Assembly: GCA_050949565.1 (NCBI GenBank)
Contig: JBMNFY010000020.1
Coordinates: forward strand, 1 to 64,000
Direction: 5' to 3'
DNA length: 64,000 bases
Source of the DNA: Kiritimatiellia bacterium
GTDB taxonomy: Bacteria; Verrucomicrobiota; Kiritimatiellia; RFP12; UBA1067
Shown: positions 13,380 through 36,962 of the stretch, in pieces
Numbering within the stretch: position 1 is the stretch's first letter
How the letters are laid out: every line of letters begins with the position of its first letter
The notes under the pieces: model-generated
Seen by the model: only the letters and a program-made list of their open reading frames with translations
Databases searched by the model: none
What the model was told of the DNA's origin: nothing
Translations under genes and position numbers: made by a program

Positions 13380-14473
13380 TGAAAAAACTATGCTATATCA
13401 GTATGCTGGCATCTCCTCATCAAGTTAAATTTTGTTATGCTCTTCAAAAGTATTATGACACAGAATTTTGGTTCTATGAACGAATAGGGCTCCGGCAAGC
13501 TTGGTGGAAAATTCCATTAGGGGATAAATGTAAAATTATTGAAGGTGTGTTTTTCAAAGCCAGGGGAAAATATATGACGTTTTCTTTGTTGAAAATGTTA
13601 AACAAGTTTAAACCTGACATTGTGATGTTGGGCGGAGTAACAATCCCCGCTAATTTTCTTGCCTATCTATGGGCGAGAAGAATGAAATGTAAAACAGTGT
13701 TGTTTTCGGAAAGATCGCGAGACCGAGCAGGCAATTTGCGCAAGTACAGTTTGGGTTGGCGATGTCTGAATTTTCTTTATAGGAAGGTGGATTTGATTTT
13801 GGTGTCTTCCGAAGATGTTGTTCCACAGTTTCGTGATACTTTTCGTTTCGGAGAGAAAGTGGTTCCCGCGCGTTATGCTGCCGATATTGATGTTTATTTT
13901 AACCACCCTTTTAGAGAAGCAAAGTCTGCCTATACGTATCTGTTCCCCAATCGTCTGACTCCCGTCTACGATCCGCTTAAGGCCATAGCAATTTTCCAAG
14001 TGATTCTTGAAGAGTTCCCAGAATCTAAACTGAAAATGAATGCTTCGGGTGAGCTTTTTGAAAGGTGTAAGAAAAAAGTGGCAGAAAGAAATCTGGCAGA
14101 TTCTGTAGAATTCTTGACAAATATTAAATCGTGGGATGAACTTCACAAAGTGTATCGCGATTCTGACATCATGATATTTCCTGCATCTTTTAGTAACGGG
14201 AATTTTACGATTATGGAGGCTATGGCTTCAGGAATGGGTCTCGTGATTAGTAATAAAGTTTTAGGGACATCATCTTATTTTAAGGACGGAATAAATGGTT
14301 TTTGTTGTGATCCAGAAATTGATGTTTTTGTTGAACGAATAAAACGATATATATCGATGCCATGTTTGTTCAAACAACATGCGATTGTGAATCGAGAGAC
14401 GGTTCGACCTTTTTCACTTGAAGGAACGGCGGAATTTACTGCTAGAATATTCCGAGAAAAACAAATTGGGTGA
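13370..14473 (+). CDS. Glycosyltransferase family 4 (AT-rich)
   Basis: 'DIMIFPAS', 'IMEAMASG', 'DGINGF'. Confidence 0.85.
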   Translation: MRMMKKLCYISMLASPHQVKFCYALQKYYDTEFWFYERIGLRQAWWKIPLGDKCKIIEGVFFKARGKYMTFSLLKMLNKFKPDIVMLGGVTIPANFLAYLWARRMKCKTVLFSERSRDRAGNLRKYSLGWRCLNFLYRKVDLILVSSEDVVPQFRDTFRFGEKVVPARYAADIDVYFNHPFREAKSAYTYLFPNRLTPVYDPLKAIAIFQVILEEFPESKLKMNASGELFERCKKKVAERNLADSVEFLTNIKSWDELHKVYRDSDIMIFPASFSNGNFTIMEAMASGMGLVISNKVLGTSSYFKDGINGFCCDPEIDVFVERIKRYISMPCLFKQHAIVNRETVRPFSLEGTAEFTARIFREKQIG

Positions 14474-15762
14474 TGGGGAATAAGAATGGTAGACTGATGA
14501 AAATTGCTTTTGCTATCTCTGGGCTTTCAATGGCATCCGGTCCCACTACTTTTTGCGTTAAAGTCATTGAAGGATTAGCGAGGGCAGATTGTGATGTTGA
14601 CCTCTACGTCGCGAAGCTTGCCGGAGTGGTGCTGCGGCCGCAGGACGAACGCGTGAAAGTTGTCGTGTCCGGCAAATCGTTTCGACCTGAAGGATTTCCT
14701 GAGTTGCTACATGTCCATGCGCTGTGGAACATGTTTTCGCATCATGTTGCAGTGTACGCAAAAAAACACAAAATCCCGTATATTGTTTCGTCGCACGGCA
14801 TGTTGGCACCATGGGCATTGCGACACAAGAGGCTCAAGAAACGGATCGCCTGGGGGCTGTACCAGAAAAAAGATCTTACTGGGGCTACGATGTTCCACGC
14901 CACAGCGGAGTGCGAGATCACTTGGCTGAGAGAACTGGGGTTTAAGCAGCCCTGTGTCCTTGCGCCGCTGGGGTCTGATCTTCCAGATTTGAATCACGCA
15001 GCGACGCAGAGGCGCAGAGAGGTTAAAAAGGTTCTGTTTGTTGGTAGGATTTACCCAGTCAAAGGACTGATGAACTTGGTAAGGGCGTGGGCGGCGGTAA
15101 AAAAAAGTTCATTCGTTCATGATTGTGATCGTGCATTAATGGACTTACGAACGGATGAACTTTCTCACTGGCAACTTGTCATAGCCGGCCCGGACCAAGC
15201 CGGACACAAAGCGGAGTTGGTGGCTGAAGCCAAACGCCTCGATCTAACAATCGCTGACGTAACCACTGACGAACTGATGCATAATCGTACGCACACACTT
15301 TCCCCGGATATTGTTTTTACAGGCCCTGTTTACGGTGCAGACAAAGATGCGCTATACCGCATGGCGGATCTCTTCGTGTTGCCCTCGTTCACTGAAAACT
15401 TCGGGGTGGTGGTCACGGATGCTCTGTCGTATGGTGTGCCGGTGATCACGACCAAAGGGACACCGTGGTCTGAGTTGCTGGGTTATTGCGACCACTCAGT
15501 GGTCGCATCAGTGGTCGCAATGGAGAGTGTAAAACCAGGCACGGGACGTGCGGGCTGGTGGATCGATATCGGTGTAGAGCCGCTGGCGGCGGCGTTGCGC
15601 GAGGCGATAAACTTGAGCGATGATGAACGGCACGCGATGGGCGAGAATGGGCGACGATTAGTAGAGGCGAAGTACACCTGGCCGGCGATCGCGGAGCAAA
15701 TGAAGGTGGCGTATGAGTGGATATTGTGTGGCGGAGAGAAACCGGATTGTGTGGTGTTGTGA
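14470..15762 (+). CDS. Glycosyltransferase family 4 carrying several short in-frame repeat-derived insertions
   Basis: 'HVHALW', 'SSHGML', 'FVGRIYPVKG', 'FVLPSFTENFGVVVTDAL'; extra segments near 14995, 15104-15163, 15260-15300 and 15483-15534. Confidence 0.9.
   Translation: MMGNKNGRLMKIAFAISGLSMASGPTTFCVKVIEGLARADCDVDLYVAKLAGVVLRPQDERVKVVVSGKSFRPEGFPELLHVHALWNMFSHHVAVYAKKHKIPYIVSSHGMLAPWALRHKRLKKRIAWGLYQKKDLTGATMFHATAECEITWLRELGFKQPCVLAPLGSDLPDLNHAATQRRREVKKVLFVGRIYPVKGLMNLVRAWAAVKKSSFVHDCDRALMDLRTDELSHWQLVIAGPDQAGHKAELVAEAKRLDLTIADVTTDELMHNRTHTLSPDIVFTGPVYGADKDALYRMADLFVLPSFTENFGVVVTDALSYGVPVITTKGTPWSELLGYCDHSVVASVVAMESVKPGTGRAGWWIDIGVEPLAAALREAINLSDDERHAMGENGRRLVEAKYTWPAIAEQMKVAYEWILCGGEKPDCVVL
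15483..15534 (+). repeat. REP-like element A, in frame within GT4
   Basis: ttattgcgaccactcagtggtcgca(tcagtggtcgca)atggagagtgtaaaa. Confidence 0.85.
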
Positions 15763-16904
15763 TGAAAATAGGCATCATGACAATTTTCAAGGCTAATAAC
15801 TATGGCGCAGAGTTGCAGGCTTTCGCCCTCCAGAAGAAACTATCGCTGATGGGACACGAAAGTGAGCTGATCGATTACCCGTTTTACAAGTACCCGAGTC
15901 ATGTCGCAAGCCGACAATCTAAGCCGATATTCAATATAGGTCTTAAAAACAGGGTGAAAGAGCGAGTTTATCCGTATTTGGTAGCATTGCAACGTGTTCC
16001 AATCAGGAAAGATATAAAACGTAAGCAAGAAAGGATGGACGCGTTCTATCGGAAACACTTCCGCTTGTCCGATGTCTGCTACAATAGCATAGAAGCCTTG
16101 TACGCCGCCGATTGGTCGTACGATCTGTTTATTACGGGCAGCGACCAGGTCTGGAATCCGCGGATGAACAGCTCGCTTGATCCGTACTTTCTGACGTTTG
16201 CTCCTTCTGACAAGCCGCGCGTCTCCTACGCCTCAAGTTTCGGGGTTTCTGCTCTGCCGGATCATACGAAAAGCGTTTACAGAGAACGTTTGTCAGCTTT
16301 TGAAAGATTGTCTGTGCGTGAAGAGCAGGGAGTGAAAATCATTCAGGATTTGCTCGGGTGTTCCCCGGAACACGTTTTGGATCCTACGTTGCTCTTGACT
16401 GACGTTGATTGGGCGGACGTGGCGGTGCCCGTTGATCAGCCGACACCCTATGTGTTGATCTATGAACTGATGCCCTGTGACGAACTCGCCGCTGTCGCAC
16501 GGTGCGTGGCATCTCAGATTGAGGGGGCGTGTGTGGTTCGCATTCGGGGCGGAGTTGGAATCAGCTCGCGAACGGACGTTGTCGACGTTGATGATGCCGG
16601 GCCTTCTGAATTTCTCGGGTTGCTTCAAGGAGCATCTGCTGTTGTCACGAACTCTTTCCATGGCACAGCCTTTGCGATCAATTTCAGAAAACCAGTTTAT
16701 CCGGTGATCCCTTGCCGCATGCGCAACGCTGGGCGAATTGAAAACCTGCTGGAGAGCCTCGGTTTGTCTGGGCGTATGATCTACGAGAAATCGAACGAAG
16801 ATGTCGCGCGGCTGGCTGAGATTGATTATGACACTGTCATGGGACGGCTTGAGCAGGAGCGTGGTAGGTCGATCAGTTATCTTGAGCAGGTCTGTAGCCA
16901 ATGA
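15762..16904 (+). CDS. Polysaccharide pyruvyl transferase family protein
   Basis: 'NYGAELQAFAL', 'GSDQVWN', 'SYASSFG', 'SVRE', 'LDPTLLL', 'TNSFHG'. Confidence 0.92.
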   Translation: MKIGIMTIFKANNYGAELQAFALQKKLSLMGHESELIDYPFYKYPSHVASRQSKPIFNIGLKNRVKERVYPYLVALQRVPIRKDIKRKQERMDAFYRKHFRLSDVCYNSIEALYAADWSYDLFITGSDQVWNPRMNSSLDPYFLTFAPSDKPRVSYASSFGVSALPDHTKSVYRERLSAFERLSVREEQGVKIIQDLLGCSPEHVLDPTLLLTDVDWADVAVPVDQPTPYVLIYELMPCDELAAVARCVASQIEGACVVRIRGGVGISSRTDVVDVDDAGPSEFLGLLQGASAVVTNSFHGTAFAINFRKPVYPVIPCRMRNAGRIENLLESLGLSGRMIYEKSNEDVARLAEIDYDTVMGRLEQERGRSISYLEQVCSQ

Positions 16905-18070
16905 GAATTGATACAACAGACAAAAACAGGTGTTGTGGTTGCGGGTCTTGTGCCGTGGCATGTCCGCAGGCTTGCATCCGTCTCGTGCCGGACGAGGAGG
17001 GATTCGATTATCCCGTTATCGACGAGGCGAACTGTACGGATTGTGGGCGATGTCTGCAAGTCTGCGGTATGCAGAATGAACCCCGTCTATACGAAGTACA
17101 ACAAACGTATGCGGCATGGCATGCAGATGCAGGTATCCGTGCCGCAAGCACGTCGGGGGGTGTGTTTAGCGCATTAGTGGACGTCACGTTTGCAGAAAAA
17201 GGTTTGGTGGCTGGGGCGGCATTTACCGATGATTTCAAAGGTGCTGAGCACCGGCTCGCCAATTCCTGGCAGGAGGCCAAAGCCTTTCGCGGCTCAAAAT
17301 ACGTGCAGAGCCGGACGCAGACTTGCTTTGCAGAGGTCATAAAGGCATTGGATCAAGGTCAAAACGTCTTGTTCACGGGCACGCCGTGTCAAGTGGCATC
17401 ACTGCGTCGGCTGACGGGTGATCCTGATACTCTGAAGACATGTGATATTGTGTGCCATGGTGTACCGTCTCCAGAAGTGTTTAGGTCGTATTTGGAGGAG
17501 GCCGAACAAAAAAACAACAGCAAAGTGGTGTCGTACGAATTTAGAGAAAAACACCATGGATGGAATTTTCCCCAAGTCGTCGTTTCCTTTGAAAATGGCG
17601 TTGTTCGGCGTTTTATACCATGGGCAGATTCTTTTTTTCATGGATTCTCATTGAATGTGTTTTTAAGGCCAAGTTGTTACCGCTGCCCTTTTGCCGCCGG
17701 CGATCGCGTTGGCGACCTAACTTTGGGTGATTGCTGGCGGGTTGCGGCAAGTCATCCGCAATATGACGATAATCGAGGCACATCGCTTCTGTTGGTTAAT
17801 ACGGAAAAAGGCCGTGAGATGGTTAGCCAAGTTGCTGACCGGCTGGTTTCACATGAGTATGACTTTGAGCTGGCGCGGAAACGCAATCATACATTATATG
17901 CGCCGTCAACTGAATGCAGCCGACGTGGGGCTTTCTTTTCAAACTTCCGGCAACATAAAAAATTTGGACTTGCTGCCAATGAATACTTAAATTTGTTGTT
18001 TGTTATGCGGAAAAAATCGGAATGGGCGTTAAAAAAACTTCTTTGGCCGCTGTTGCGACGTTTCCAATAA
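16901..18070 (+). CDS. 4Fe-4S / F420 hydrogenase beta-subunit (FrhB) family protein of polysaccharide loci
   Basis: Two CxxCxxCxxxC ferredoxin motifs, 'STSGG', 'GSKYVQS', 'GTPCQV', 'CHGVPS', 'RPSCYRC', 'DLTLGD'. Confidence 0.9.
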   Translation: MRIDTTDKNRCCGCGSCAVACPQACIRLVPDEEGFDYPVIDEANCTDCGRCLQVCGMQNEPRLYEVQQTYAAWHADAGIRAASTSGGVFSALVDVTFAEKGLVAGAAFTDDFKGAEHRLANSWQEAKAFRGSKYVQSRTQTCFAEVIKALDQGQNVLFTGTPCQVASLRRLTGDPDTLKTCDIVCHGVPSPEVFRSYLEEAEQKNNSKVVSYEFREKHHGWNFPQVVVSFENGVVRRFIPWADSFFHGFSLNVFLRPSCYRCPFAAGDRVGDLTLGDCWRVAASHPQYDDNRGTSLLLVNTEKGREMVSQVADRLVSHEYDFELARKRNHTLYAPSTECSRRGAFFSNFRQHKKFGLAANEYLNLLFVMRKKSEWALKKLLWPLLRRFQ

Positions 18071-18080
18071 TGGATTTACT

Positions 18081-18653
18081 ATGCGCGATAAAATAAAAGT
18101 GCGACCTTATACTAATCGATTGCCTATCAAAGAACGGTTGCATAGGCTTCTCTGGAATGTTGTTTGGCTTTGCTTCTTTCGGTTAACCCCGAGTTGGGGC
18201 TTTCGTGGTTGGCGGCTTTTCATATTGAAATGCTTCGGGGCCAAGGCAGGAAAAGGATGCGTGATTTATCCCAGTTGTAAGATTTGGGCACCTTGGAATC
18301 TGGAGATGGGTGACTATGCCTGTCTGGCGTCCGATGTGGATTGTTACACGGTGGCTCCTATAAAATTGGGGAACAAAGTCTCTGTGAGTCAACGTTCCTT
18401 TCTGTGTACGGCATCGCACGACATCTCCGATGGCAATCGGCCGTTAACATTTGCACCGATTGTTATTCAGGATTTTTCTTGGATAGCTGCGCAAGCCTTT
18501 ATCGGTCCTGGGGTGACGGTTGGCGAAGGTGCCGTAGTAGGGGCTTGTGCTGTAGTAACGAAAGATGTCGAGCCGTGGACGGTAGTGGCTGGAAATCCGG
18601 CGCGTTTCATCCGGCGGCGTGAAATTATGGACGGCGAGCAGGAGCGGGTTTGA
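18081..18653 (+). CDS. wcaF: WcaF-like acetyltransferase
   Basis: 'IWAPWNL', 'LCTASHD', hexapeptide repeats, 'AGNPAR'. Confidence 0.85.
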   Translation: MRDKIKVRPYTNRLPIKERLHRLLWNVVWLCFFRLTPSWGFRGWRLFILKCFGAKAGKGCVIYPSCKIWAPWNLEMGDYACLASDVDCYTVAPIKLGNKVSVSQRSFLCTASHDISDGNRPLTFAPIVIQDFSWIAAQAFIGPGVTVGEGAVVGACAVVTKDVEPWTVVAGNPARFIRRREIMDGEQERV

Positions 18654-19477
18654 ATAACGTGAGTGTGCCGATTTCCATCGTCATACCGGTCAAAAACGAA
18701 GCGGCGAATTTGGCGCTTTGTTTGGAGTCGGTTCAGGCTTTTAATGATGTGGTTGTCGTGGATTCAGGAAGTACGGACGGGACGTGTGACATCGCGCGTC
18801 GTTACGGTCGGACTGTCGTGCAGTTTGCGTGGGATGGACGATTCCCCAAAAAACGGAATTGGATCTTGCAGAATCATTGCTTTCAGAATCCGTGGGTACT
18901 CTTTCTTGACGCGGATGAGCGCATGACGCCCGAGGTCCGTGATGAATTGACGTGCGTTCTCCCAAGCACTACGCATCATGCCTTTTGGATCGGTTATCGG
19001 AACTGGTTTCTGGGCCAGCTTTTGCGGCACGGCGATCCCATGCGGAAAATGGCCGTGTTGCGGGTCGGTCATGGCGCATACGAGAAGATCCTTGAAGACG
19101 CATGGAGCGGTCTCGATATGGAGATCCATGAGCACATGGTCGTGGACGGGAGCGTGGGTGCCATCGAAGCCAAGTTGGAGCATCATGACAAACGGGATCT
19201 GCACGCCTATTATTCCCGCCACAACGACTATTCGACGTGGGAGGCAAAACGGTATCTCGCGCTGGGTGACCGTTCACAGTTGACCCGGCGGCAGCGCATG
19301 AAATACCGGTTCCTGACATGGGCGTGTTTCCCGGTTCTTTATTTTTTCGCGAGTTACGTGCTGAAAGGCGGGTTTCTCGACGGCCGTGCCGGCTTTTATT
19401 TTGCAGTCGGAAAGATGTTCTATTTTTATCAGATACAGGCGAAAATCCATGAGTTGAAAGGGGGCCGGGGGATTTAA
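18650..19477 (+). CDS. Glycosyltransferase family 2
   Basis: 'IVIPVKNE', 'VDSGSTD', 'LFLDADE', 'IHEH', 'GGFLDGRAG'. Confidence 0.9.
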   Translation: MNNVSVPISIVIPVKNEAANLALCLESVQAFNDVVVVDSGSTDGTCDIARRYGRTVVQFAWDGRFPKKRNWILQNHCFQNPWVLFLDADERMTPEVRDELTCVLPSTTHHAFWIGYRNWFLGQLLRHGDPMRKMAVLRVGHGAYEKILEDAWSGLDMEIHEHMVVDGSVGAIEAKLEHHDKRDLHAYYSRHNDYSTWEAKRYLALGDRSQLTRRQRMKYRFLTWACFPVLYFFASYVLKGGFLDGRAGFYFAVGKMFYFYQIQAKIHELKGGRGI

Positions 19478-19640
19478 ACGCAGAGACGCGGGGGGGGATG
19501 GGAGTTTTAACGCAGAGGCGCAGAGGCGCGGAGGCGCGGGGGGGGATGGGAGTTTTAACGCAGAGGCGCAGAGGCGCGGAGACGCGGGGGGGGATGGGAG
19601 TTTTAACGCAGAGGCGCAGAGACGCGGAGACGCGGGGGGG
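19473..19640 (+). repeat. Tandem repeat of about 48-49 bp built on AACGCAGAGGCGCAGAG with a poly-G tract
   Basis: gggggggatgggagttttaacgcagaggcgcagag(g/a)cgcggag three times plus a partial copy. Confidence 0.85.
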
Positions 19641-20014
19641 CAGACAGTGGGCAATCGGCAGGGGGGCTGGAGGGGCAGGCGGCGGAGAAACGGGCGAAGA
19701 AAATGAGGTATGCGCGCATGCCGCTCTTCTGGCGCGCGTTTGCCTATTTCTGCTATCGCTATTTTTTGCGGGGCGGGTTTCTGGAGGGCCGGGAGGGCTT
19801 CCTGTGGCACTTCCTGCAGGGCTGGTGGTACCGCACGCTGGTGGATGCCAAGGTCTTCGAGATCAAGCGCGAGAGCGGCGGCGATCCGCAGAAGATGCTG
19901 GCGTTGCTGCGTGGGAAAGTATGGGATGAAGATCTGAGCTTATTGCGACCACTTGGTGGTCACAAAAAGGGTCTAATGGCGAGTAACAAACAAGCGCGGA
20001 GCACCGAGCGGTGA
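19640..20014 (+). pseudogene. Orphan C-terminal fragment of a second GT2 glycosyltransferase
   Basis: 'GQAAEKRAKKMRYARMPLFWRAFAYFCYRYFLRGGFLEGREGFLWHFLQGWWYR' is homologous to the tail of 18650-19477; catalytic N-terminus absent; frame closed upstream by TAA at 19604. Confidence 0.8.
19940..19968 (+). repeat. REP-like element A (short hybrid copy)
   Basis: ttattgcgaccacttggtggtcacaaaaa. Confidence 0.75.
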
Positions 20015-20051: not shown

Positions 20052-20053
20052 GA

Positions 20054-20520: not shown

Positions 20521-20527
20521 CAAGGAG

Positions 20528-21013: not shown

Positions 21014-21019
21014 CCTATC

Positions 21020-25554: not shown

Positions 25555-25560
25555 ATGACC

Positions 25561-27724: not shown

Positions 27725-27727
27725 AGC

Positions 27728-30498
27728 GTGAGAATCCTTTGGCTTCATCAGTATTTCGCGACGCCGCGTGGTTGGGGCGCGGTGCGGACGTATGAGTTTG
27801 CGCGGCGGTTTGTGCGCGCGGGACATGCCGTGGATGTGGTGTGTTGCGCAGGCTATGACGATTCGTTGCGGCCGACGGGACGTAGGCCGCTGATGGTTGA
27901 CGGCGTACGGGTCTTTGTGAGCGGCACGACTTACCGTCCGCAGATGGGGTTCACGCGGCGTGTGGTGTCGTTCTTGCGTTTCATGACCGCTGCTCTGTGG
28001 TTTGTGTTACGGCATGGACGGGACTACGACAGGGTGATCGCGTCGAGCGGGCCGCTGACGCTGGCCGTGCCGGCGCTGGTCGGTCGATGGTTGTGGCGCG
28101 TGCCGTATGTCTTTGAGGTGATCGATGTCTGGCCTGATTCGGCGATCGCCGCAGGTGTGCTGAAGAACCCTGTGTTAAAGTGGTTGAGTTTTCGGCTGGA
28201 GGCGCTGGCCTATCGGCATGCCGCCGCGATTGTTACCTGCTCAACCGGCATGACAGCGCGGGTGGAAGGAAAGCTGGGTGGGAACGCAGAACGCAGAACG
28301 CAGAACGCAGAACGTAGAAGTGGGGAAGGGGAGAACGCAGAACGCAGAACGCAGAACGCAGAACGTAGAAGTGGGGAAGGGGAGAACGCAGAACGCAGAA
28401 CGCAGAACGCAGAAAAGAAGATTGTTACGATTTCGAACTGCTGTGATTTGGAGACGTGTGCGCCGGATGAGGCGGTGCGGCGGGCGGTGCGGTCGAAGTA
28501 TGGCGTGCGCGAGGATCAGATGGTGGTGCTCTACAGCGGCGCGATGGGGCGAAGCAATGCGATGGAGGATGTGGCCGCCGCCGTGGCGGCGACGGCGGAG
28601 GATGAGCGGATTGTCTGGTGGTTTGCGGGAGACGGGGCTTATTGCGGCTGCGTAACGCAGAACGCAGAACGCCGAACGCAGGACGCAGAAGTGGGGAATG
28701 GGGAAACGCTCAACGCTCAAGCGGGGGAACGGGAGGGACAAGCGTCTGCTTGTCCGAGAACGCAGAACGCAGAACGCCGAACGCAGGACGCAGAAGTGGG
28801 GAATGGGGAAACGCTCAACGCTCAAGCGGGGGAACGGGAGGGACAAGCGTCTGCTTGTCCGAGAACGCAGAACGCAGAACGCCGAACGCAGGACGCAGAA
28901 GTGGGGAATGGGGAAACGCTCAACGCTCAAGTGTGGGAACGGGAGGGGCAAGCGTCTGCTTGCCCGAGAACGCCGAACGTCGAACGTCGAACGCTGAACT
29001 CAGAAGTGGAGAATGGGGAAACGCTCAACGCTCAAGAGAGGGAACGGGAGGGGCAAGCGTCTGCTTGCCCGAGAACGCAGGACGCAGAACGCCGAACGCA
29101 GGACGCAGAAGTGGGGAATGGGGAAACGCTCAACGCTCAAGCGGGGGAACGGGAGGGACAAGCGTCTGCTTGTCCGAGAACGCAGAACGCAGAACGCCGA
29201 ACGCAGGACGCAGAAGTGGGGAATGGGGAAACGCTCAACGCTCAAGTGTGGGAACGGGAGGGGCAAGCGTCTGCTTGCCCGAGAACGCCGAACGCGAACG
29301 TCGAACGCTGAACTCAGAAGTGGAGAATGGGGAAACGCTCAACGCTCAAGAGAGGGAACGGGAGGGGCAAGCGTCTGCTTGCCCGAGAACGCAGGACGCA
29401 GAACGCCGAACGCAGGACGCAGAAGTGGGGAATGGGGAAACGCTCAACGCTCAAGAGAGGGAACGGGAGGGGCAAGCGTCTGCTTGCCCGAGAACGACGA
29501 ACGCTGAACTCAGAACGCTGAACTCAGAAGTGGAGAATGGGGAAACGCTCAACGCTCAAGAGAGGGAACGGGAGGGGCAAGCGTCTGCTTGCCCGAGAAC
29601 GCAGAACGCAGAACGCCGAACGCAGGACGCAGAAGTGGGGAATGGGGAAACGCTCAACGCTCAAGAGAGGGAACGGGAGGGGCAAGCGTCTGCTTGCCCG
29701 AGAACGCAGAACGCAGAACGCCGAACGCTGAACTCAGAAGTGGAGAATGGGGAAACGCTCAACGCTCAAGAGAGGGAACGGGAGGGGCAAGCGTCTGCTT
29801 GCCCGAGAACGCAGAACGCAGAACGCCGAACGCAGGACGCAGAAGTGGGGAATGGGGAAACGCTCAACGCTCAAGAGAGGGAACGGGAGGGGCAAGCGTC
29901 TGCTTGTCCGAGAACGCCGAACGCTGAACTCAGAACGCTGAACTCAGAAGTGGAGAATGGGGAAACGCTCAACGCTCAAGAGAGGGAACGGGAGGGGCAA
30001 GCGTCTGCTTGTCCGAGAACGCAGAACGCAGAACGCCGAACGCTGAACTCAGAAGTGGAGAATGGGGGACGGGTGCGGAACTTTGGACGGATGGCGAAGG
30101 AGGAGGTGGTGGTGCTGGTGCGTGCGGCGGATGTGAATCTGGTGACATTCCGGCATGAACCGCTCTTCTTTGAGAATTCGCCCAATAAGTTTTTCGACGG
30201 GATCGCGGCGGGTGTGCCGGCGCTCTTTAACCGCAGCACATGGCTGGAGCCGTGGCTGGAAGCGTATGACTGCGGTATCGTCTGCAAGGGTGAACGCCCC
30301 GGCGAGGAGATGGCGGCGGCGTTGCGCGGGCTGGCTGATGATCCGGAACGCCGTCGGCGTATGGGGCTCGGTGCGCGGCGGCTGGCGGAAGAGGTGTTTG
30401 ACCGGGACAAGCTGGCGGCGGAGTATCTGGCGTTATTATTGCGACCACTCAGTGGTCGTAATGACGAGTGTAAAACCGGACGAGGGGACGGACGCTGA
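27728..30498 (+). CDS. Glycosyltransferase family 4 (WbuB-like) with about 1.5 kb of coding repeats; one-base frameshift near 29295 as assembled
   Basis: N-part 'MRILWLHQYF', 'FEVIDVWP', 'LYSGAMG', 'FAGDG' in 27728-29311; C-part 'SPNKFFDGIAAGVP', 'FDRDKLA' in the 28618-30498 frame. Confidence 0.85.
28282..28413 (+). repeat. GAACGCA heptamer array, in frame
   Basis: (gaacgca)n blocks separated by gaacgtagaagtggggaagggga; peptide NAERRTQNAERRSGEGE. Confidence 0.9.
28654..30068 (+). repeat. 105-bp coding tandem repeat, 13 hairpin-B units
   Basis: gg(g/a)caagcgtctgcttg(c/t)cc at 28736, 28841, 28946, 29051, 29156, 29261, 29365, 29470, 29575, 29680, 29785, 29890, 29995. Confidence 0.97.
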
Positions 30499-30566
30499 AT
30501 GCGCACAGGACATGCGATGGGGTCTTGCGCGGGATGCGCCCGGTGACGTAAGGTTTTAACCTCGTT
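30436..30566 (+). repeat. Element A supplying the GT4 C-terminus
   Basis: ttattgcgaccactcagtggtcgtaatgacgagtgtaaaa...cgtaaggttttaacctc. Confidence 0.88.
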
Positions 30567-30612
30567 TAAGGGGGGTTAGGTAGGGGGATTTGGGCAATAA
30601 ACTGTAAAATCG

Positions 30613-30642
30613 TTGACAACGAGTGCCGAAAAGCTGTAATTT
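30613..30642 (+). promoter_or_regulatory. Putative sigma70 promoter
   Basis: Perfect TTGACA, 18 bp spacer, TAATTT; ATG 30650 follows after 7 nt with no SD. Confidence 0.5.
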
Positions 30643-30649
30643 AATACAC

Positions 30650-31909
30650 ATGAAGAGTGAAAAGACAGTTGATCGGGTTTTGCGCCAGCGCCTTTCTCCT
30701 TCGGAGAGGCGCAGGCTTGTCATTGTCACCGGAGCGCGGCAGACGGGGAAGACCACGTTGCTGAAGCGGACTTATCCCGATTTGCGATACGTCAACCTTG
30801 ATGCCTTTGAGAACAGGGAATGGACGAGGGAGGTCTCTTCCTTCGACTGGGCTGGCCGTGTGGGGCAGGCGGTGATCGATGAGGCGCAAAAAGAGCCATC
30901 GGTTTTTGAGAAGGTGAAGTTCGCTTTCGACGCAGGAACCTTGTCCTTCTCGGTGCTTTCCGGTTCCGCGCAGATTCTTCTGCTTTCGCGTGTCCGCGAG
31001 ACGTTGGCGGGGCGCGCGTTCGTCTATGAACTGTGGCCGTTGCTATTCTGCGAATTGGCCGCCGCTGTGCGGGGGGTGCCGCTGGCGCCGCCGTTTTGCG
31101 CGAGAATCGCAACGTGCGAAAACCTCGGGGCGCTCTTCTCCTCGTTGCCGTCGTCTCTGCCGCCCGAGGAGGCACATGCGCTGGATCAGGTTCAGGAGCA
31201 CTTGCTGACATGGGGCGGGATGCCGGAACTGCTTCGGCTGGATGACGAAGACCGTCGGCAGTGGCTGCGCTCATACGAGATAACGTACCTTGAGCGTGAT
31301 TTGGGCGACCTCGCGCGTCTTTCTGATCTCGCGCCCTTCAAAAAGTTTCAGCGGATCGCTGCGCTGAGGTCTGGTGGGATGCTTTCGTATTCCGAACTTT
31401 CGAAAGACGCGGGTGTCAGTTCCGAGACCGCTCGGCGTTATCTGGAATATCTTCGGATTTCTTACCAGATGTTTATGTTGTCGCCCTACCACGTCAATCT
31501 CACCAGTCAGGTTGTCAAAACGCCCAAGATCTACTGGAGCGACGTAGGTTTGTTGCGGCAGGTCAGCGGACAGTTCCGAACGACCACCGGAGCACTATTC
31601 GAGACGTTTGTTGTCAGCGAACTGAAAAAATGGGCGAGTACCAGCGGATCGGAGTTGCGCCTGTTCTATTACCGGACGCGTTCGGGGCTTGAGGCTGACC
31701 TGCTGATCGAGACGGAAAAAGGGCTGATCGGCATTGAAATCAAGTCGCACGAGCGTGTGGATCGATCGGACGCATCGGGCTTGCGCCGTATCGCGGAGGC
31801 CGCCGGCACGAAATGGCAGGGGGGAATGGTTGTTTATCCGGGCTCGCGGCTGTTTCCTTTGTGTGAACCGGAAATCTGGGCCGTGCCGGCATCGCGGTTG
31901 CTGGCGTAG
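30650..31909 (+). CDS. ATP-binding protein (AAA_14 + DUF4143)
   Basis: Walker A 'GARQTGKT', Walker B 'VIDEAQ', 'LSGS', 'ETLAGR', 'KTPKIYWSDVGL', 'YYRTRSGLEADL', 'IEIK'. Confidence 0.92.
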   Translation: MKSEKTVDRVLRQRLSPSERRRLVIVTGARQTGKTTLLKRTYPDLRYVNLDAFENREWTREVSSFDWAGRVGQAVIDEAQKEPSVFEKVKFAFDAGTLSFSVLSGSAQILLLSRVRETLAGRAFVYELWPLLFCELAAAVRGVPLAPPFCARIATCENLGALFSSLPSSLPPEEAHALDQVQEHLLTWGGMPELLRLDDEDRRQWLRSYEITYLERDLGDLARLSDLAPFKKFQRIAALRSGGMLSYSELSKDAGVSSETARRYLEYLRISYQMFMLSPYHVNLTSQVVKTPKIYWSDVGLLRQVSGQFRTTTGALFETFVVSELKKWASTSGSELRLFYYRTRSGLEADLLIETEKGLIGIEIKSHERVDRSDASGLRRIAEAAGTKWQGGMVVYPGSRLFPLCEPEIWAVPASRLLA

Positions 31910-31918
31910 GGAGCAAGT

Positions 31919-32539
31919 ATGAAACGGGTGCTGGATGTGGCGGCGGTGGTACTGACGGCGGTGGTATGGGTGCCGCTGTTGCTACTGGCTATGGCGGTGG
32001 TACGGGCGGCGTTGGGTCGCCCGGTTTTTTTTGTGCAGGAGCGGGCGGGACGTGACGGACGCCCGTTCCGGCTGGTGAAGCTGCGCACCATGCGCGAAGG
32101 CGACGAACCGGATGCCGAACGGCTGACACGCGTGGGACGGTGGTTGCGTGCTACAAGCCTTGATGAGTTGCCGGAATTGTGGCATGTCTTGCGTGGCGAG
32201 ATGTCGCTGGTCGGGCCGCGTCCACTGCCGGTGCGGTATCTGCCGCGCTATTCGCCGCAGCAGGCGCGGCGGCATGAGGTGCGGCCGGGGATCACGGGCT
32301 GGGCACAGGTGAACGGCAGGAATTCGCTGACATGGGAGCAGAAATTCGCGTATGATGTCTGGTATGTGGATCACATGGGTTTCTGGCTGGATGTGAAGAT
32401 CCTGTGGCGGACGGTGTGGCAGGTGTTGGCACGGCGCGGGATCTCGGCCGAGGGTGAAGCGACGATGGGGGAGTTTTTATTGCGACCACCCAGTGGTCGC
32501 AATGACGAGTGTAAAAACGGGCGGGCAGGCGGGCGCTGA
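31919..32539 (+). CDS. pglC: Bacterial sugar transferase, initiating phosphoglycosyltransferase (PglC-like)
   Basis: 'MKRVLD', 'KLRTM', 'LRATSLDELPEL', 'MSLVGPRP', 'RPGITGWAQVNGR'; tail derived from element A. Confidence 0.88.
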   Translation: MKRVLDVAAVVLTAVVWVPLLLLAMAVVRAALGRPVFFVQERAGRDGRPFRLVKLRTMREGDEPDAERLTRVGRWLRATSLDELPELWHVLRGEMSLVGPRPLPVRYLPRYSPQQARRHEVRPGITGWAQVNGRNSLTWEQKFAYDVWYVDHMGFWLDVKILWRTVWQVLARRGISAEGEATMGEFLLRPPSGRNDECKNGRAGGR

Positions 32540-32635
32540 ATGCGCACGGGACATGCAATGGCGTCTCGCGCGAAATGTGCCCGGTGGCGTAAGTTTTTAA
32601 CCTCACCTTTGTGGCCACTGGGTGGTCACGAAAAA
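32477..32635 (+). repeat. Full-length element A
   Basis: Both hairpins present (ttgcgaccacccagtggtcgcaa ... tttgtggccactgggtggtcacgaa). Confidence 0.88.
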
Positions 32636-32671
32636 TAAAAACGGGCGGGCGGAGAGAGGAGCGTTAGGGCA

Positions 32672-33298
32672 GTGAAACAGATCGTGATTGTGGGAGCGGG
32701 GGGCTTCGGGCGCGAGGCGGCGTGGGTGGTCGAGCGGATCAATGCTGCTGCGCCGCAGTTTAAGCTACTGGGCTTTTGTGATGACGCGGCGGATAAGCGT
32801 ACAGGGCAGTACGGCGGCTATCCGCTGTTGGGACCGCTCTCCGGCGTGAAAGCGCGTCGCGACGCGGTGGGCTTTTTTTGCGCGATCGGTAACAACCGCG
32901 TGCGGCGGGATGTATTCGCCGAGGGCAGGGCGCTGGGACTTGAGCCGGTGTCGCTGATTGACCCGAGCGCGGTTATCGCGCCGGATGTGGAGATCGGTCG
33001 AGGGAGCTTTGTTGGCGTTAACAGCGTGGTGTCCGTGGGGGCGTCGCTGGGTGAGGGGGTGCTGGTGAACCATCAGGTGTGCGTGGGACATGATGCGCAG
33101 ATCGGGGACTTCGCGCAGCTTTGTCCGGGTGTGTGCGTCTCGGGCGGGTGTGAGGTTGGCGAGGGGGCGCTGCTGGGCACGCTCGCAGGCACCATTCCGC
33201 TGAAGCATGTGGGCGCGTGGGCGACGCTGGGCGCGGGCAGCGTGGCGCTCAGGGATGTGGCGGAGGGGGCGGCGGTTGTGCGGCTTGCTGCGCGGTGA
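32672..33298 (+). CDS. NeuD/PglD family sugar acetyltransferase
   Basis: 'IVGAGGFGRE', 'AIGNN..R', hexapeptide repeats, 'VGHD'. Confidence 0.88.
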   Translation: MKQIVIVGAGGFGREAAWVVERINAAAPQFKLLGFCDDAADKRTGQYGGYPLLGPLSGVKARRDAVGFFCAIGNNRVRRDVFAEGRALGLEPVSLIDPSAVIAPDVEIGRGSFVGVNSVVSVGASLGEGVLVNHQVCVGHDAQIGDFAQLCPGVCVSGGCEVGEGALLGTLAGTIPLKHVGAWATLGAGSVALRDVAEGAAVVRLAAR

Positions 33299-33408
33299 TT
33301 ATTGCGACCACGCAGTGGTCGCAATGACGAGTGTAAAAACGAGCGAGAAGGGTGGGCACTGAATGCGCGCAGAACATGAGAGGGTGGTATGCGCAGGAAT
33401 CGCCCGAG
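33299..33408 (+). repeat. Element A directly after the stop codon
   Basis: TGA-ttattgcgaccacgcagtggtcgcaatgacgagtgtaaaaac. Confidence 0.85.
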
Positions 33409-33435
33409 AAAGAGACTGGCACGAGATTGGTTAAG

Positions 33436-35142
33436 ATGAGGGTTTGGGCGAGTGAAAGAGGACGGGTGCTGGGTGTCAGCGCGTTGGTCGGGCTGGCGGC
33501 GCTGGTGGTGTATGCAACGACCGCGCAACGTGGGATCAGTTGGCAGGACAGCGGCGAGTATCAGTATAAGTTTTTAGCCGAGGCATACGACTGGGAGGTC
33601 GGGGCGGGCATTGCGCGTCTGCATCCGACATACATCCTGTTGACGCGGCTGTTGGTGTCGTGTCTGCCGGGGGGGGGTGTGCCGTATGTCTATACGCTGT
33701 CGAGCGGGGTGGGCATGGCGCTGGCGCTGGCGGTCTTGGTGCTGACGGTGTACGGCATGACGCGGTCATTGCGCGCGGGGTGTCTAGCGGCTGTATTGCT
33801 GGGCGGTGCGCACATGGCCTGGTGGCTGAGTACGATGGCGGAGGTCTACACATGGTCGCTGGCCTTGCTGATGCTGGAACTAGCGTGCCTGATGAAGACG
33901 CTGCGGGAACGATCATTCGCATGGTTTGCGGGCGCGATCTTTTTCAACGGTTTTCATTTCGGAGTGCATCACTTTGCATTGCTGAACCTGCCGGTGTATG
34001 CGGTGCTGTTCTGGTTGCTGTTCCGGCGCAAGGCGTGGCACTGGGGCGCATGCGCGGGGCTCTGGCTATTCGGCGCGTTGCCGATTGTGATCCCGATCGT
34101 GCGTTATTGGGTGGCGAGTGGCAGTCTGGAAGCGGTGATCCGGAGTGCGTTGTTCGGCGAGGTGTTCCAGCAGAAGATCTTGGCGTTGGATGTACGCAAT
34201 GGGCCGCTCTGGAGGGCGAACATGGCGCTGGCGAGTGTTAGTTTCATGAATCCGTGCTGGCTGTATGCGGTGGTGGTGCCGCTGGTGGCGTGGCGAGCGT
34301 GGCGGATGAGGGGGAGAACGTCGGACGTCGAACGCCGAACGCCGAACGCAGAACGTCGAACGTCGAACGTCGAACGCAGAACGCAGAACGCAGAAGTGGA
34401 GAATGGGGAAAACGTTCAACTTTCAACATTCAACGCTCAACGCTCAAGTACGGGAACGGGAGGGGCAAGCGTCCGCTTGCCCGAGAACGCCGAACGTCGA
34501 ACGCAGAACGCAGAACGCAGAAGTGGAGCGACATTGTTGGCGTTGACGGCGCTACATGCGTTTTTCTGGGTGCGGTATCTGGTGCCGGATCAGGCGACCT
34601 TCCTGCTGCCGACGCTGGGGCTGCTGGCGGTGTGGGCGGGCGTGGGCGCGGCGCGTGTGTTACTGCGTGAACGGCGCGGGTGGTTTGCGCCGAGTTTGGC
34701 GGTGTCGCTGGCGTGCAGCGTGTTGGTACCGCATGCGGTTTGCAGGACGGCTGAGCGGTTGTTGCCGCCACGGTCGCGTGTGTTACCGTTCCGCGACGAG
34801 TTTGCGTATTGGGCATATCCGTGGAAGCACAACGAGGATTCGGCGGAGCGATTTGTCGAGGCGGTGGCGCGTGAGCGTTATCCCGAGGACATGGTGGTGT
34901 GGGCGGATACGACGGCGGTCGCACCGCTGATGGCGGCTCAGGCGATGGGACGGTTACCGGCGTCGTGGCGCTGGCTCTCCTATTGGCAAAATGAAGAGGA
35001 CGAGGTGATCATACAGCGGTTGCAGGCGTCGCCGGATGGCGGTTATGTGGTGTCGCCACTCCGATGCTATGTGCCGGAGGCGATTCTTGAGCAGGCGCAA
35101 TCGTTCGAGCGTCGCGGTGTACTGCATCGTATCGTGTGGTAA
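33436..35142 (+). CDS. DUF2723/TMEM260-like multi-TM GT-C glycosyltransferase with an in-frame repeat insertion
   Basis: 'WQDSGEYQ', 'HPTY', 'STMAEVYT', many TM helices; insert 34315-34527; start uncertain (33352-33467). Confidence 0.75.
   Translation: MRVWASERGRVLGVSALVGLAALVVYATTAQRGISWQDSGEYQYKFLAEAYDWEVGAGIARLHPTYILLTRLLVSCLPGGGVPYVYTLSSGVGMALALAVLVLTVYGMTRSLRAGCLAAVLLGGAHMAWWLSTMAEVYTWSLALLMLELACLMKTLRERSFAWFAGAIFFNGFHFGVHHFALLNLPVYAVLFWLLFRRKAWHWGACAGLWLFGALPIVIPIVRYWVASGSLEAVIRSALFGEVFQQKILALDVRNGPLWRANMALASVSFMNPCWLYAVVVPLVAWRAWRMRGRTSDVERRTPNAERRTSNVERRTQNAEVENGENVQLSTFNAQRSSTGTGGASVRLPENAERRTQNAERRSGATLLALTALHAFFWVRYLVPDQATFLLPTLGLLAVWAGVGAARVLLRERRGWFAPSLAVSLACSVLVPHAVCRTAERLLPPRSRVLPFRDEFAYWAYPWKHNEDSAERFVEAVARERYPEDMVVWADTTAVAPLMAAQAMGRLPASWRWLSYWQNEEDEVIIQRLQASPDGGYVVSPLRCYVPEAILEQAQSFERRGVLHRIVW
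34315..34527 (+). repeat. Heptamer plus hairpin-B insertion, in frame
   Basis: gaacgtc/gaacgcc/gaacgca arrays, tcaacgc motifs and gggcaagcgtccgcttgccc. Confidence 0.9.
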
Positions 35143-35151
35143 GGGAATGTC

Positions 35152-36679
35152 ATGAGCAAGCGGATTTTTTTGTCGCCGCCGTGGCTGGGCGGCAGCGAGC
35201 GGGCCAGGGTGGAAGAGGCTTTCGCGTCCGGCTACATCGCGCCGTGCGGGCCGATGGTGGATCGGTTTGAGCGCGCGTTCGCCGAGCGGACGGGCATTGC
35301 GCATGCCTGTGCGTTGTCGAGCGGGAGCGCCGCGCTCGACCTGCTGTTTCACGAGTTGGGGATCGGTCCTGGGGATCGTGTATTCTGTTCTGACCTAACC
35401 TTTATCTCTTCCATCGCGTCGGCGGTGCAACGCGGTGCCGAGCCGGTGTTCATCGATTGCGACGAGACAAGCTGGACGATGGATCCGGATTTGCTGGAAG
35501 AGGCGTTGGCGCAGGCCGCAGCCGAAGGGCGGTTGCCCAAAGCGGTGGTGGCGGTGGATCTCTATGGTCAGTGCTGCGACTACGGGCGTATCGAATCGCT
35601 GTGCGAGCAGTACGGGGTGCCGCTGATTATTGATGCGGCGGAGGCGCTGGGCGCTTGTTATTGCGACCACGGAGTGGTCGCGGGAACGTCAGAACTCAGA
35701 ACGCAGAACTCAGAATGCAGAAGCGGGAACGTTCAACGCTCAACGCTCAACGCTCAACGCTCAAGTTAGGGAACGGGAGGGGCAAGCGTCTGCTTGCCCG
35801 AGAACTCAGAACGCAGAACGTAGAACGCGGAACGCAGAAGTGGAAACGTTCAACGCTCAAGGAAGGAGCGCCGGAGATGCTGGATGGGCGGCGGTGTTTT
35901 CTTTTAACGGCAACAAGATCATCACGACATCGGGTGGCGGGATGTTGGCGTCGCGTGATGCGGGGGTAGTGGAGCGGGCGCGGAAGCGGGCGCAGCAGGC
36001 GCGTGAGCCGGTGGTGTGGTATGAACACCGGGAACTGGGATACAACTTCCGCATGAGTAATATCGTGGCGGCGATTGGCGTGGGACAGCTTGAGGCACTG
36101 GAGATCATTCTCGCGAAAAAGCGGCAGATTTTCGAATGGTATTGCGAGCGGCTGGAAGACGTGCCGGGGGTGAGGCTGATGCCGGAGGCGGGGTATGGAC
36201 GGTGCTCGCGGTGGCTTACGGTGGTGGAGTTATTGCGACCACGAAGTGGTCGCAATGACGAGTGTAAAAACGGGCGAGGAACAGGCACTAGATGCGCACG
36301 GGGCATGCAATGGGGAGATGCGCGGGGAGAGCCTAATGATGAGCCCGGCAGACCACGAAGTGGTCGCAATGACGAGTGTAAAAACGAGCCGAGCGCGCAA
36401 GTGATGCGGGTGATTGAGGCGCTTGAGCGGGAGAATATCGAGTCGCGTCCGGTGTGGAAGCCGATGCACCTGCAACCGGTCTTTCAAGGGGCGCGGGTGG
36501 TCGGCGGGGCGGTTTGCGAGCGTCTGTTCGCCAACGGGTTGTGTCTGCCGTCCGGTGCCGGGCTCGAACGGGATGATGTGGAACGGATTTGCGACGTGGT
36601 AGTTGCGGCGCTTGCAAAAGATGTGTCAATTAAATCTCACACAAAGGCACAAAGGACACGAAGGGTATCCACAGATTAA
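35152..36679 (+). CDS. DegT-family aminotransferase (PglE/EpsN-like), frameshifted within a repeat insertion as assembled
   Basis: N-part 'IFLSPP', 'VDLYGQ', 'DAAEALG' (35152-35769); C-part 'SFNGNKIITTSGGG', 'GYNFRMSN', 'ESRPVWKPMHLQP', 'GLCLPSG' in the +1 frame. Confidence 0.85.
35658..35860 (+). repeat. Composite insertion: element A hairpin, heptamers, (TCAACGC)4 and hairpin B
   Basis: ttattgcgaccacggagtggtcgc, agaactc/agaacgc, tcaacgc x4 at 35733-35760, gggcaagcgtctgcttgccc. Confidence 0.9.
36230..36384 (+). repeat. Element A doublet, in frame within the aminotransferase
   Basis: gaccacgaagtggtcgcaatgacgagtgtaaaaacg twice; peptide RPRSGRNDECKN twice. Confidence 0.9.
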
Positions 36680-36962
36680 CACAGATTACGCATTTTTTGG
36701 GGGGGTAGGGCTCGGGTTTGTTTAACCACGGAATACACTGAACACACGGAAAGGCACTGCTCGGTTTTTTTATCACACAAAGGCACAAAGGACACGAAGG
36801 GTATCCACAGATTAACACAGATTACGCATTTTTTGGGGGGTAGGGCTCGGGTTTGTTTAACCACGGAATACACTGAACACACGGAAAGGCACTGCTCGGT
36901 TTTTTTATCACACAAAGGCACAAAGGACACGAAGGGTTTTTGGGGGCACTGCTCGGTTTTTT
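36637..36962 (+). repeat. About 135-bp tandem repeat (about 2.3 units) made of nonamer-type motifs
   Basis: tcacacaaaggcacaaaggacacgaaggg at 36637, 36773, 36908. Confidence 0.92.

Follow-up and report, generated by a model that had tools for sequence, protein, structure and literature searches.

Translated repeat islands and a RAYT-like gene in a surface-polysaccharide locus of a Kiritimatiellia bacterium

The insertion of small repeats into the reading frames of working genes is of a kind already known, since Rickettsia palindromic elements (RPEs) lie in frame within functional Rickettsia genes (Ogata et al. 2000, as summarised in the excerpt of PMC10969869) and intragenic repetitive extragenic palindromic (REP) sequences, according to the excerpt of Di Nocera et al. 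2013 (PMC3733652), are most numerous in Opitutus terrae, a bacterium of the Planctomycetes-Verrucomicrobia-Chlamydiae (PVC) group, with REP clusters that can encode tens of residues; the same excerpt places REP arrays at the flanks of exopolysaccharide (EPS) genes in Thauera and discusses REPs as RNA elements. Here we describe a region (14470-36960) within a 64,000-nt stretch of DNA from a Kiritimatiellia bacterium, the whole stretch being called the window (contig C20:1-64000 of the genome coded G000, which has 4.66 Mb, 21 contigs and 60% GC). The region is a co-directional surface-polysaccharide operon whose enzyme genes hold many translated repeat islands, and it also houses a gene resembling those of the REP-associated tyrosine transposases (RAYTs). 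The explanation that we regard as probable, though well short of certain, is that a long-resident RAYT/REP family has spread locally into a tolerant, horizontally shuffled island and has been filtered for frame.

Other described systems come close in single traits. In the simple-sequence contingency loci of the Neisseria/Haemophilus type, short tandem repeats lie within glycosyltransferase genes, and the REPINs of Pseudomonas are said to have been described by Bertels and Rainey in 2011. As for the present locus, its gene content had been proposed in an earlier note made from the sequence alone, and it is borne out by Pfam, NCBIfam and PADLOC: the glycan genes code for GT4 and GT2 glycosyltransferases, a pyruvyl transferase, an FrhB-like protein, hexapeptide transferases, a Bac_transf sugar transferase, a PglD-like protein and a DegT-type aminotransferase, and the non-glycan genes are two four-helix-bundle (4HB) genes of PF05635, the RAYT-like gene of 301 aa, an AbiEii gene and an AAA_14/DUF4143 ATPase gene. 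The long open reading frames (ORFs) at ~0.7-36.7 kb of the window are nearly all on the + strand, as are all the genes, cassettes and copies of element A for which coordinates within the region are given below. The metagenome runs that hold the locus come from digester, landfill and wastewater samples.

Repeat families and in-frame islands

The first repeat family, element A, is ~165 bp long. Its 5' module consists of TTGCGACCACnnnGTGGTCGCAA followed by the tail TGACGAGTGTAAAA, and its 3' end is an inverted, slightly divergent copy of this module (GTGACCAC...GTGGTCAC), so that the element has a REPIN-like build. By BLAST it occupies ~90 places genome-wide in both orientations, 13 of them in the region and all of these on the + strand, and a pattern search gives 61 family A hairpins genome-wide. 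As dispersed imperfect palindromes with inverted doublets the copies agree with REPs and REPINs, but in the region they depart from them in not being extragenic: outside it they are mostly intergenic, while inside it at least six A modules lie within enzyme ORFs. No GTAG or CGTC tag was seen on the element. The second family is the purine-rich B unit. Its parts are five heptamers of the GAACGCA type, a spacer rich in G, the hairpin GGCAAGCGTCYGCTTGCC and, in some copies, CAACGCT heptamers, and according to Tandem Repeats Finder (TRF) the unit is multiplied into tandem arrays with periods of 75, 51 and 105 bp. Genome-wide the B hairpin is a module of a mosaic, with 135 matches in 114 clusters which are mostly intergenic and in both orientations.

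The reality of these families and their enrichment in the region, both asserted in the earlier note, are confirmed by TRF and by the genome-wide mapping which that note called for. In fact 9 of the 40 genome copies of the perfect hairpin 1 of element A (GCGACCACnnnGTGGTCGC) fall in the region, which is 0.48% of the genome; GAACGYN doublets number 42 there against 1.1 expected, and repeated 18-mers of all families make up 15.5% of the region, compared with 5.5% genome-wide. The region is rich, though not unique, for about a dozen 20-kb bins are equal or richer, and by repeated 18-mers it ranks ~12th among the non-overlapping bins of this size. Moreover, the copies share one orientation on the coding strand, as had been noticed before: 11/11 A 5' modules (the lone match on the - strand being the inverted 3' end of a full element), 42/42 heptamer doublets and 16/16 B hairpins are on the + strand, compared with a 77/55 split of the B hairpins genome-wide. 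For the B arrays, the single orientation and the keeping of frame can be attributed to purifying selection, because the reverse frames of long arrays are full of stops (10-13 in each reverse frame of the 105-bp array) while the sense frames are nearly stop-free owing to the T-poor units; as to the short A module, two of its three frames are open whichever way it is oriented. Other ideas on the arrays were tried and dropped. Among arrays with a period of at least 20, multiples of three make up 10 of 12 in the region but also 110 of 175 elsewhere; three canonical G-quadruplex motifs occur in the region and none in the arrays; and the orientation of A is only modestly associated with local GC skew (19/12 vs 8/19, counts that include inverted 3' ends).

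When each insertion was checked against insertion-free homologues, ~13-14 internal insertions and 3-4 C-terminal tails were counted, and the claim of ~14 insertions inside enzymes with all but two in frame stood, the two being frame breaks in the assembly; the ACGCAGAG run at 14996-15020 had to be struck off, as it is not an insertion relative to orthologues. Among the glycosyltransferases, the GT4 at 14470-15762 (Pfam, homologue alignment) has in-frame islands including an A hairpin at 15483-15545, read as YCDHSVVA..., and the GT4 of 597 aa at 23040-24833 (TRF, Pfam, alignment) has four of them, namely 23525-23700 (A), 23781-24127 (a 75-bp x4.6 B array), 24200-24340 (SSLVHYCDS/TNEL modules) and 24594-24638 (an A hairpin). 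When two GT4s of the window were aligned with eleven homologues belonging to other genera, the additional segments mapped to four loops, which are empty in some homologues and have other repeat fillings in the genomes G014 and G020; in one of these loops G014 has an A hairpin in another reading frame, giving LLRPLSGRND instead of YCDHAVVAM. The third GT4 at 27728-30498 (TRF, Pfam) contains a 51-bp x2.6 array (28282-28414) and a 105-bp x13.5 array (28654-30067), the latter being a 1.4-kb in-gene array which forms one island of ~470 extra residues, and its C-terminal tail is derived from A (30429-30563). For the GT2 at 26816-27724, alignment to the arm units of the 4HB cassettes (see below) shows that the in-frame island at ~27145-27265 includes one arm unit of 4HB2 type (27208-27253), corresponding to the 3' arm of cassette 2, and the orthologues of 267-285 aa are without residues ~112-150; solitary arm modules are in this way tied to intragenic insertions.

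The two genes at the end of the operon allow the closest comparison. The polytopic membrane protein at 33352-35142 has an in-frame heptamer/B-hairpin island (34316-34522) which by orthologue comparison is absent in G006 and G023, shorter in the sister genome G004 (with flanks 95-97% identical), of another kind in G005 and derived from heptamers independently in G018; all the orthologues compared have an open frame. The DegT-type aminotransferase gene at 35152-36679 (Pfam, orthologue alignment) has one island at 35655-35850 (an A hairpin and a B unit) and another at 36225-36400 (two A modules). Insertion-free forms of 371-386 aa are found in G021, G015, G034 and G012, whereas in the closer orthologues, whose frames are open over 418-550 aa, both sites are filled by varying mixes of A hairpin, NAERRT heptamers, SSLVHYCDS hairpin and TNELMN repeats. 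The ratio of nonsynonymous to synonymous substitution rates (dN/dS) of the DegT cores is 0.12-0.17 across five insertion-bearing orthologues, which is the RPE-like situation of in-frame insertion in genes under purifying selection. Judging from these alignments, the insertions lie in working genes, would be read through as in-frame loops, and are not artefacts; the comparison across related genomes that had been suggested thus finds variable-length, in-frame fillings at the same loops. Elsewhere in G000 only three other clear in-frame cases were found. B-type heptamer units form in-frame parts of a Type ISP restriction enzyme, within its specificity domain (C17:1709384-1712842), and of a Polysacc_synt_2 dehydratase encoded beside an exosortase gene, at the C-terminus (C15:55211-57565).

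It could be argued that the locus is simply decaying or mis-assembled, the insertions marking pseudogenes and the arrays and frame breaks being artefacts. In favour of this, the assembly has two frame breaks, and the 1.4-kb array is as given by this assembly, since short-read contigs stop at every repeat. To examine the breaks, 30070-36640 was compared with contigs from four runs, two of DNA and two of RNA libraries, the cover by RNA contigs being incomplete. The extra base at 35688/9 in DegT is missing in all three covering runs (X1, X4, X15), and G004 has a single 550-aa DegT frame without it, so the break is private to this assembly or strain; the base is no more than 10 bases from where an imperfect GAACNCA heptamer tract begins, and the difference does not amount to a whole unit. 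The other break is due to one 104-bp unit near 29283-29313 in the 105-bp array of the GT4, which would otherwise have 924 codons (as assembled here). Against a decayed or mis-assembled locus, the unique parts of 30070-36640 were found again, at few differences, in independent runs of DNA dated 2021 and 2024, the sister genomes keep their islands in open frames, and dN/dS is low. With 14 DNA runs from 12 studies holding at least 0.63 of the sampled words of 27000-36990, we consider this explanation very improbable.

The same data bear on strain variation, which the earlier note had expected: the part that stands is that whole in-frame units differ between close strains, while slippage of the heptamers was not seen. 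Compared with G000, G004 has one extra 105-bp unit in DegT, in frame, besides the shorter membrane-protein island, and in two runs there is a form from which 93 nt at 34395-34489 are missing. Among the data sets the length differences are 93, ~105 and 3 nt, together with single bases outside simple repeats; a heptamer slippage switch was rejected because no difference of 7 nt or its multiples is found. The heptamers match one another at 80-96% (TRF), and do not form the perfect, frame-shifting repeats of contingency loci. As to excision from RNA, another expectation, none is seen in the RNA-library contigs, which cannot show rare forms or ends; these contigs run through the A hairpins at 30140-30515, 33303-33655 and 35406-35763, where carry-over of DNA is possible.

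The hairpins inside DegT deserve separate attention. Across G000, G004, G005 and G006 the stem of each hairpin keeps all of its 16 bases, while the 3-nt loops differ; counting G005 and G006 against G000/G004 (two hairpins, three lineages), 0 of 64 stem positions and 5 of 12 loop positions have changed, in a gene whose proportion of synonymous differences (pS) among these genomes is 0.38-0.40. At the same sites, one hairpin is degenerate and the other half replaced in G007, and both are gone in G020. Within the genus, then, the stems may be either selected or repeatedly homogenised. A role as stabilisers, processing sites or pause sites has been proposed for REPs downstream of genes, and likewise the hairpins here might be RNA- or DNA-structure elements which set relative expression within the polycistronic transcript. 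Perfect conservation of the stems amid changing loops and neighbouring synonymous sites would fit such elements, as would the co-orientation of the copies with transcription both here and in G014 and the location of many copies exactly at gene ends. However, the hairpins are decayed or absent at the same sites in G007 and G020, and an identical pattern would result if the RAYT or gene conversion homogenised the copies; moreover, an Rfam scan of 14000-37500 gave no match, promoter and terminator scans of the region gave nothing above chance, and the RNA contigs, in which ends cannot appear, show neither ends nor processing. A structural role of this sort seems to us rather unlikely.

The RAYT-like gene and its hairpins in glycan loci

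The gene at 21986-22891 codes for a protein of 301 aa with a conserved C-terminal extension, and its last codons (IATTQWSQ*) are those of an A hairpin. MPDHLHA is the HUH motif of the protein and AYIRDNV its tyrosine motif; the consensus of nine homologues reads MPDHLHG and YIxDNPRR, so that both the HUH motif and the Y-x-x-x-N-P tyrosine of RAYTs can be recognised. Its scores lie below the curated cut-offs (20.4 bits vs 23 for Pfam Y1_Tnp, 32.4 vs 80 for NCBIfam REP_Tyr_transpos), and a phmmer search of PDB with the protein gave no match; with a profile of the nine homologues, E. coli TnpA-REP (4ER8) and ISDra2 TnpA rank first in PDB with the motifs aligned, at an E of 0.15 only. The C-terminal half (residues ~178-261; 22500-22891) gives several weak matches, at E ~1, to DprA, a single-strand DNA-binding Rossmann domain. 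On these motifs we take the product as a putative RAYT-type transposase-like protein and call it RAYT-like. One full-length element A, with hairpin 1 and tail followed by inverted tail and hairpin 2, lies upstream of the gene at 21805-21970, and a second overlaps its 3' end at 22863-23030 (both by BLAST), which means that the gene is flanked by its cognate hairpins. There are three RAYT paralogues in G000, all distant (23-35% identity). The 35%-identical one (C9:28278-29153) has a perfect element-A hairpin ~230 bp downstream, and family A has accordingly two candidate partners.

The linkage of RAYT and element A extends well beyond this genome. Orthologues were found in 22 loci of PVC-group metagenome-assembled genomes (MAGs), with 50-81% identity (at least 64% in 21 of them) and GC from 0.44 to 0.67; in 20 of the 22 the gene runs at its 3' end into a family A hairpin, which supplies IATTxWSQ and the stop, and an inverted copy is usually found upstream. 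Glycan genes are linked to the RAYT to the same extent: homologues of the glycan genes of the window lie in the short RAYT flanks in 20/22 loci, compared with a background of 3.3% of G000 within 6 kb of such homologues. In the 12 longest loci, whose neighbours were surveyed with Pfam, polysaccharide genes occur in 11, Bac_transf in 8, the DUF4143 ATPase in 5, and AbiEii or PIN genes in single loci. Almost all neighbours in these loci are co-oriented with the RAYT, and the immediate neighbour varies by genome (GT4, GT2, Bac_transf, DegT or PglD). A 4HB2-type gene with 78-88% identity is present in four glycan loci (L062, L064, L080 and the G014 locus). The grouping of RAYT, DUF4143 ATPase, 4HB2-type cassette and glycan genes is thus found again in PVC genomes other than G000. 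As these genomes are related, the synteny of RAYT and glycan genes may be one old placement inherited with a rearranging locus. A search of the literature found no paper linking RAYTs to polysaccharide loci. In L065, a MAG contig of 12.9 kb, 31 A-type hairpins surround the RAYT orthologue and an 'epimerase' ORF is swollen to 653 aa, a denser case than the present one.

Several distributions are relevant to the question of whether the hairpins spread from the RAYT itself. The AATGACGAG tail variant of the copy at the RAYT 3' end is shared by 9 of the 11 region copies and by ~5 of the ~45 elsewhere, which fits local spread from the RAYT. In G014, 9 of the 32 hairpins are on the 34-kb contig of the RAYT, and in G005 and G006, where family A is rare (7 and 4 matches), 3 per genome are in the glycan contig, at least 2 of these in DegT.

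Given such linkage, one may think of a dedicated diversification layer, in which the RAYT, the hairpins and the co-oriented arrays have been kept since remodelling of glycan genes changes the surface sugar, either by precise single-strand excision and insertion, by gain or loss of units, or by recombination between repeats of different genes. That the RAYT adjoins glycan genes in 20 of the 22 PVC loci, and different ones in different genomes, would be expected from such a layer, as would the whole in-frame units by which close strains differ, the recombination junction with a gene remnant which lies in repeats (see below) together with an upstream half that differs among congeners, and the ERCC4-HhH nuclease genes in 3 of the 12 surveyed loci (L063, L065, L062) and SNF2 helicase genes in 2 (L065, L069). 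On the other hand, the enzymes are cytoplasmic or membrane-bound with strongly conserved cores, the islands lie in ordinary loops instead of specificity-determining sites, no on/off length variation is seen among the data sets, no chimeric glycosyltransferase joined at a repeat was found, and the synteny may be the single ancestral placement mentioned above. Domain shuffling at the GT-B interdomain linker was also considered and rejected, for the islands lie in several loops and not in the linker alone. Of the repeat-based layer that had been proposed for the locus, we retain the mobile part, which is real, concentrated in glycan genes and in frame, while the diversifying or tuning of glycan is unsupported; we judge a diversification layer improbable. 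It is similarly doubtful that a RAYT lineage with a DprA-like extra domain has been recruited to PVC polysaccharide loci, where with its hairpins and units it would form a remodelling or expression-setting device; if this were true, the hairpins in the enzymes would be maintained and not merely tolerated.

Four-helix-bundle cassettes and the mosaic locus

Two of the repeat families of the region turn out to be the arms of 4HB cassettes, namely GTGGCTA/CCACTCG and GGTTCAA/TTGAACC. Cassette 1 (20427-21019; Pfam) consists of a CCACTCG/CCACTAA arm, the gene at 20528-20905 and a GTGGCTA arm, and its arm duplex has -46.0 against -14.6 +/- 3.8 for shuffles. Cassette 2 (24826-25505; Pfam) consists of a GGTTCAA arm, the gene at 24925-25305 and a TTGAACC arm of 39-bp units; it has 83 arm-to-arm pairs in the minimum free energy (MFE) fold and a duplex of -153.9 against -80.9 +/- 6.7, and its orthologue in G014 has the same GGTTCAA arms. 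The two genes match PF05635 at E 8e-42 and 1e-37. The statement that the region has two 4HB genes holds in that both are intact, and is incomplete in that a third, decayed cassette lies at 26480-26815, in which both arms remain but the gene is reduced to 30 codons interrupted by a stop (26645-26734; tblastn 87% over 30 aa; fold). A PF05635 gene between complementary arms is the build of the intervening sequences (IVSs) of rRNA; the location in an rRNA helix is lacking here, as the cassettes lie between protein genes and the 14000-37500 stretch has no Rfam match.

The supposed tie of the 4HB genes to glycan genes proved not to be specific. The other three cassettes in G000 lie between PglZ and an SNF2 helicase in a BREX-like setting, beside DUF6079, and in a pilus operon, and because others sit in BREX-like and pilus operons we regard the cassettes as independent guests. 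The B heptamers are not the arms of an extant 4HB gene, none of the five 4HB genes of G000 having GAACGCA arms. A diversity-generating retroelement (DGR) was also looked for, and Pfam gave no reverse-transcriptase domain in the 26 ORFs scanned; matches to bAvd and DGR-Avd are below cut-off (Pfam, NCBIfam). Elsewhere in the window, ~55 copies of GAAACCCC are found at 52729-53152, and this unit is the long 3' arm of a 4HB cassette on another contig (C18:11279-11659).

Cassette 2 is followed by a small upstream ORF and an AbiEii-type nucleotidyltransferase gene (25507-26509, AbiEii at 25832-26509; Pfam E 8e-12, with a weak PADLOC match). The AAA_14/DUF4143 ATPase gene (30623-31909; Pfam), which G007 lacks at this position, matches the PADLOC candidate defence family PDC-S01 at E 2e-86. 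Repeats also form the ends of several glycan genes: the GT2 at 21020-21889 (Pfam, sequence) has its last residues and stop codon supplied by the element A from 21805, the initiating sugar transferase of Bac_transf type (31919-32640; Pfam) has a C-terminal tail from a full-length element A at 32470-32640, and the PglD-like acetyltransferase (32672-33378 including the element; Pfam, BLAST) is followed by an element A at 33299-33378. As for arrays between genes, TRF gives a 48-bp x3.4 array of AACGCAGAG-type octamers (19479-19640) directly 3' of a GT2 stop codon, a 54-bp x6.3 array of GTGGCTA/AGTGATT heptamers (20053-20426) with the same sense as in the 3' arm of cassette 1, and a 135-bp x2.2 array of CACAAAGG / CACAGATTAA modules (36637-36937), which closes the locus ahead of a GH123 gene.

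Upstream, a low-GC block at 11000-19500 (0.45-0.51 vs ~0.60), with five glycan genes, is bounded at its end by a repeat array and by what remains of a GT2 C-terminus; it looks like a replaced cassette of the glycan locus. The GT4 of this block has no counterpart in six same-genus genomes. The remnant (19703-20014), which includes a hybrid A hairpin at 19945-19963, is the C-terminus of a second GT2 (BLASTP 43% over 51 aa, E 9e-7), and by composition it marks the junction of the low-GC block (~11-19.5 kb) and the high-GC part. The upstream half has no match in the six same-genus genomes and differs among congeners. With its low-GC block, the GT2 remnant at the junction and a variable upstream half, the locus is a mosaic. 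Its PDC-S01 gene, like the AbiEii, PIN, SNF2 and ERCC4 genes in the loci of relatives, adds to the picture of an island with defence-type cargo. Farther downstream in the window, a tandem duplication with a period of ~4619 bp covers 43600-52464: the ORFs at 43600-44670, 45084-46085 and 46556-47845 recur at 48219-49289, 49703-50704 and 51175-52464, and small TRF matches recur at an equal offset.

Origin of the islands and comparison with known systems

Our preferred explanation, local spread of a resident RAYT/REP family with filtering for frame, can be spelled out as follows. A horizontally shuffled polysaccharide island would have long housed a RAYT-type single-strand DNA transposase, whose cognate REP/REPIN hairpins (element A) would have spread preferentially into the genes adjoining it. 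Units of GAACGCA heptamers plus hairpin and single 4HB arm units may then have piled onto the same sites, repeat within repeat, and amplified in tandem. Purifying selection would remove insertions that shift the frame, bring a stop or miss the tolerant surface loops, and the outcome would be translated, length-variable and probably neutral loops confined to a small number of fixed sites. The island would have separate guests of selfish or defence type in the 4HB cassettes, the AbiE pair and the DUF4143 (PDC-S01) ATPase, which would not be parts of one machine.

Some points weigh against this account. The constancy of the DegT stems at the pS observed points to more than a purely neutral passenger, which should have decayed. 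The joint recurrence of the RAYT, the DUF4143 ATPase, the 4HB2-type cassette and glycan genes goes beyond a random junkyard, though shared descent could explain it. The A hairpin of G014, being in another frame in the same GT4 loop, suggests repeated targeting and not only survivorship. Finally, the account presupposes that the RAYT acts with a bias in cis, which we infer.

What this locus may teach is of wider bearing. Translated selfish repeats are known mainly from Rickettsia, and here they are found in an extreme form, ~14 islands in a single operon, in free-living PVC bacteria. The position of the RAYT in about twenty genomes and the conserved in-gene stems make it now testable whether the REP/RAYT pair is a parasite or serves its host. 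A further link made by the locus is that between orphan heptamer arrays and the arms of 4HB cassettes of the rRNA-IVS type, and such repeat islands inflate and split gene calls in MAGs.

Compared with the known systems, the locus takes a trait from each. Unlike in the contingency loci, the heptamers are imperfect and stop-free in the sense frames, and the strain length differences are multiples of three with no switch evident. With the ORF-bearing IVSs of 23S rRNA, as presented for Coxiella S23p in the excerpt of PMC4990558, it shares the PF05635 gene within complementary arms able to form a long stem, but measured against that excerpt the cassettes here are outside rRNA, small hairpins and arrayed units of 7-8 nt make up their arms, and one arm unit lies alone within the GT2 coding sequence. 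The REP/REPIN-RAYT systems (E. coli TnpA-REP 4ER8, Pseudomonas) are alike in having an HUH/Y1-type gene flanked by its own hairpins, with one orthologue per genome and dozens of dispersed copies and inverted doublets; the protein here, however, is twice as long, has a conserved C-terminal domain and scores below the family cut-offs, its position is conserved in polysaccharide loci, and many repeats are intragenic. As in the RPEs and intragenic REPs portrayed in the excerpts cited at the outset, small palindromic repeats lie in frame in functional genes and are read as extra surface loops, whereas here the same loops contain nested modules of several unrelated families, one island reaches ~470 residues, and the insertions are concentrated in one glycan locus which also holds the cognate RAYT. 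What is new, then, is the density and nesting of the repeats, the 1.4-kb in-gene array, the conserved synteny of RAYT and glycan genes and the conserved stems, and owing to these features a functional reading, by remodelling or by RNA structure, stays alive at modest odds.

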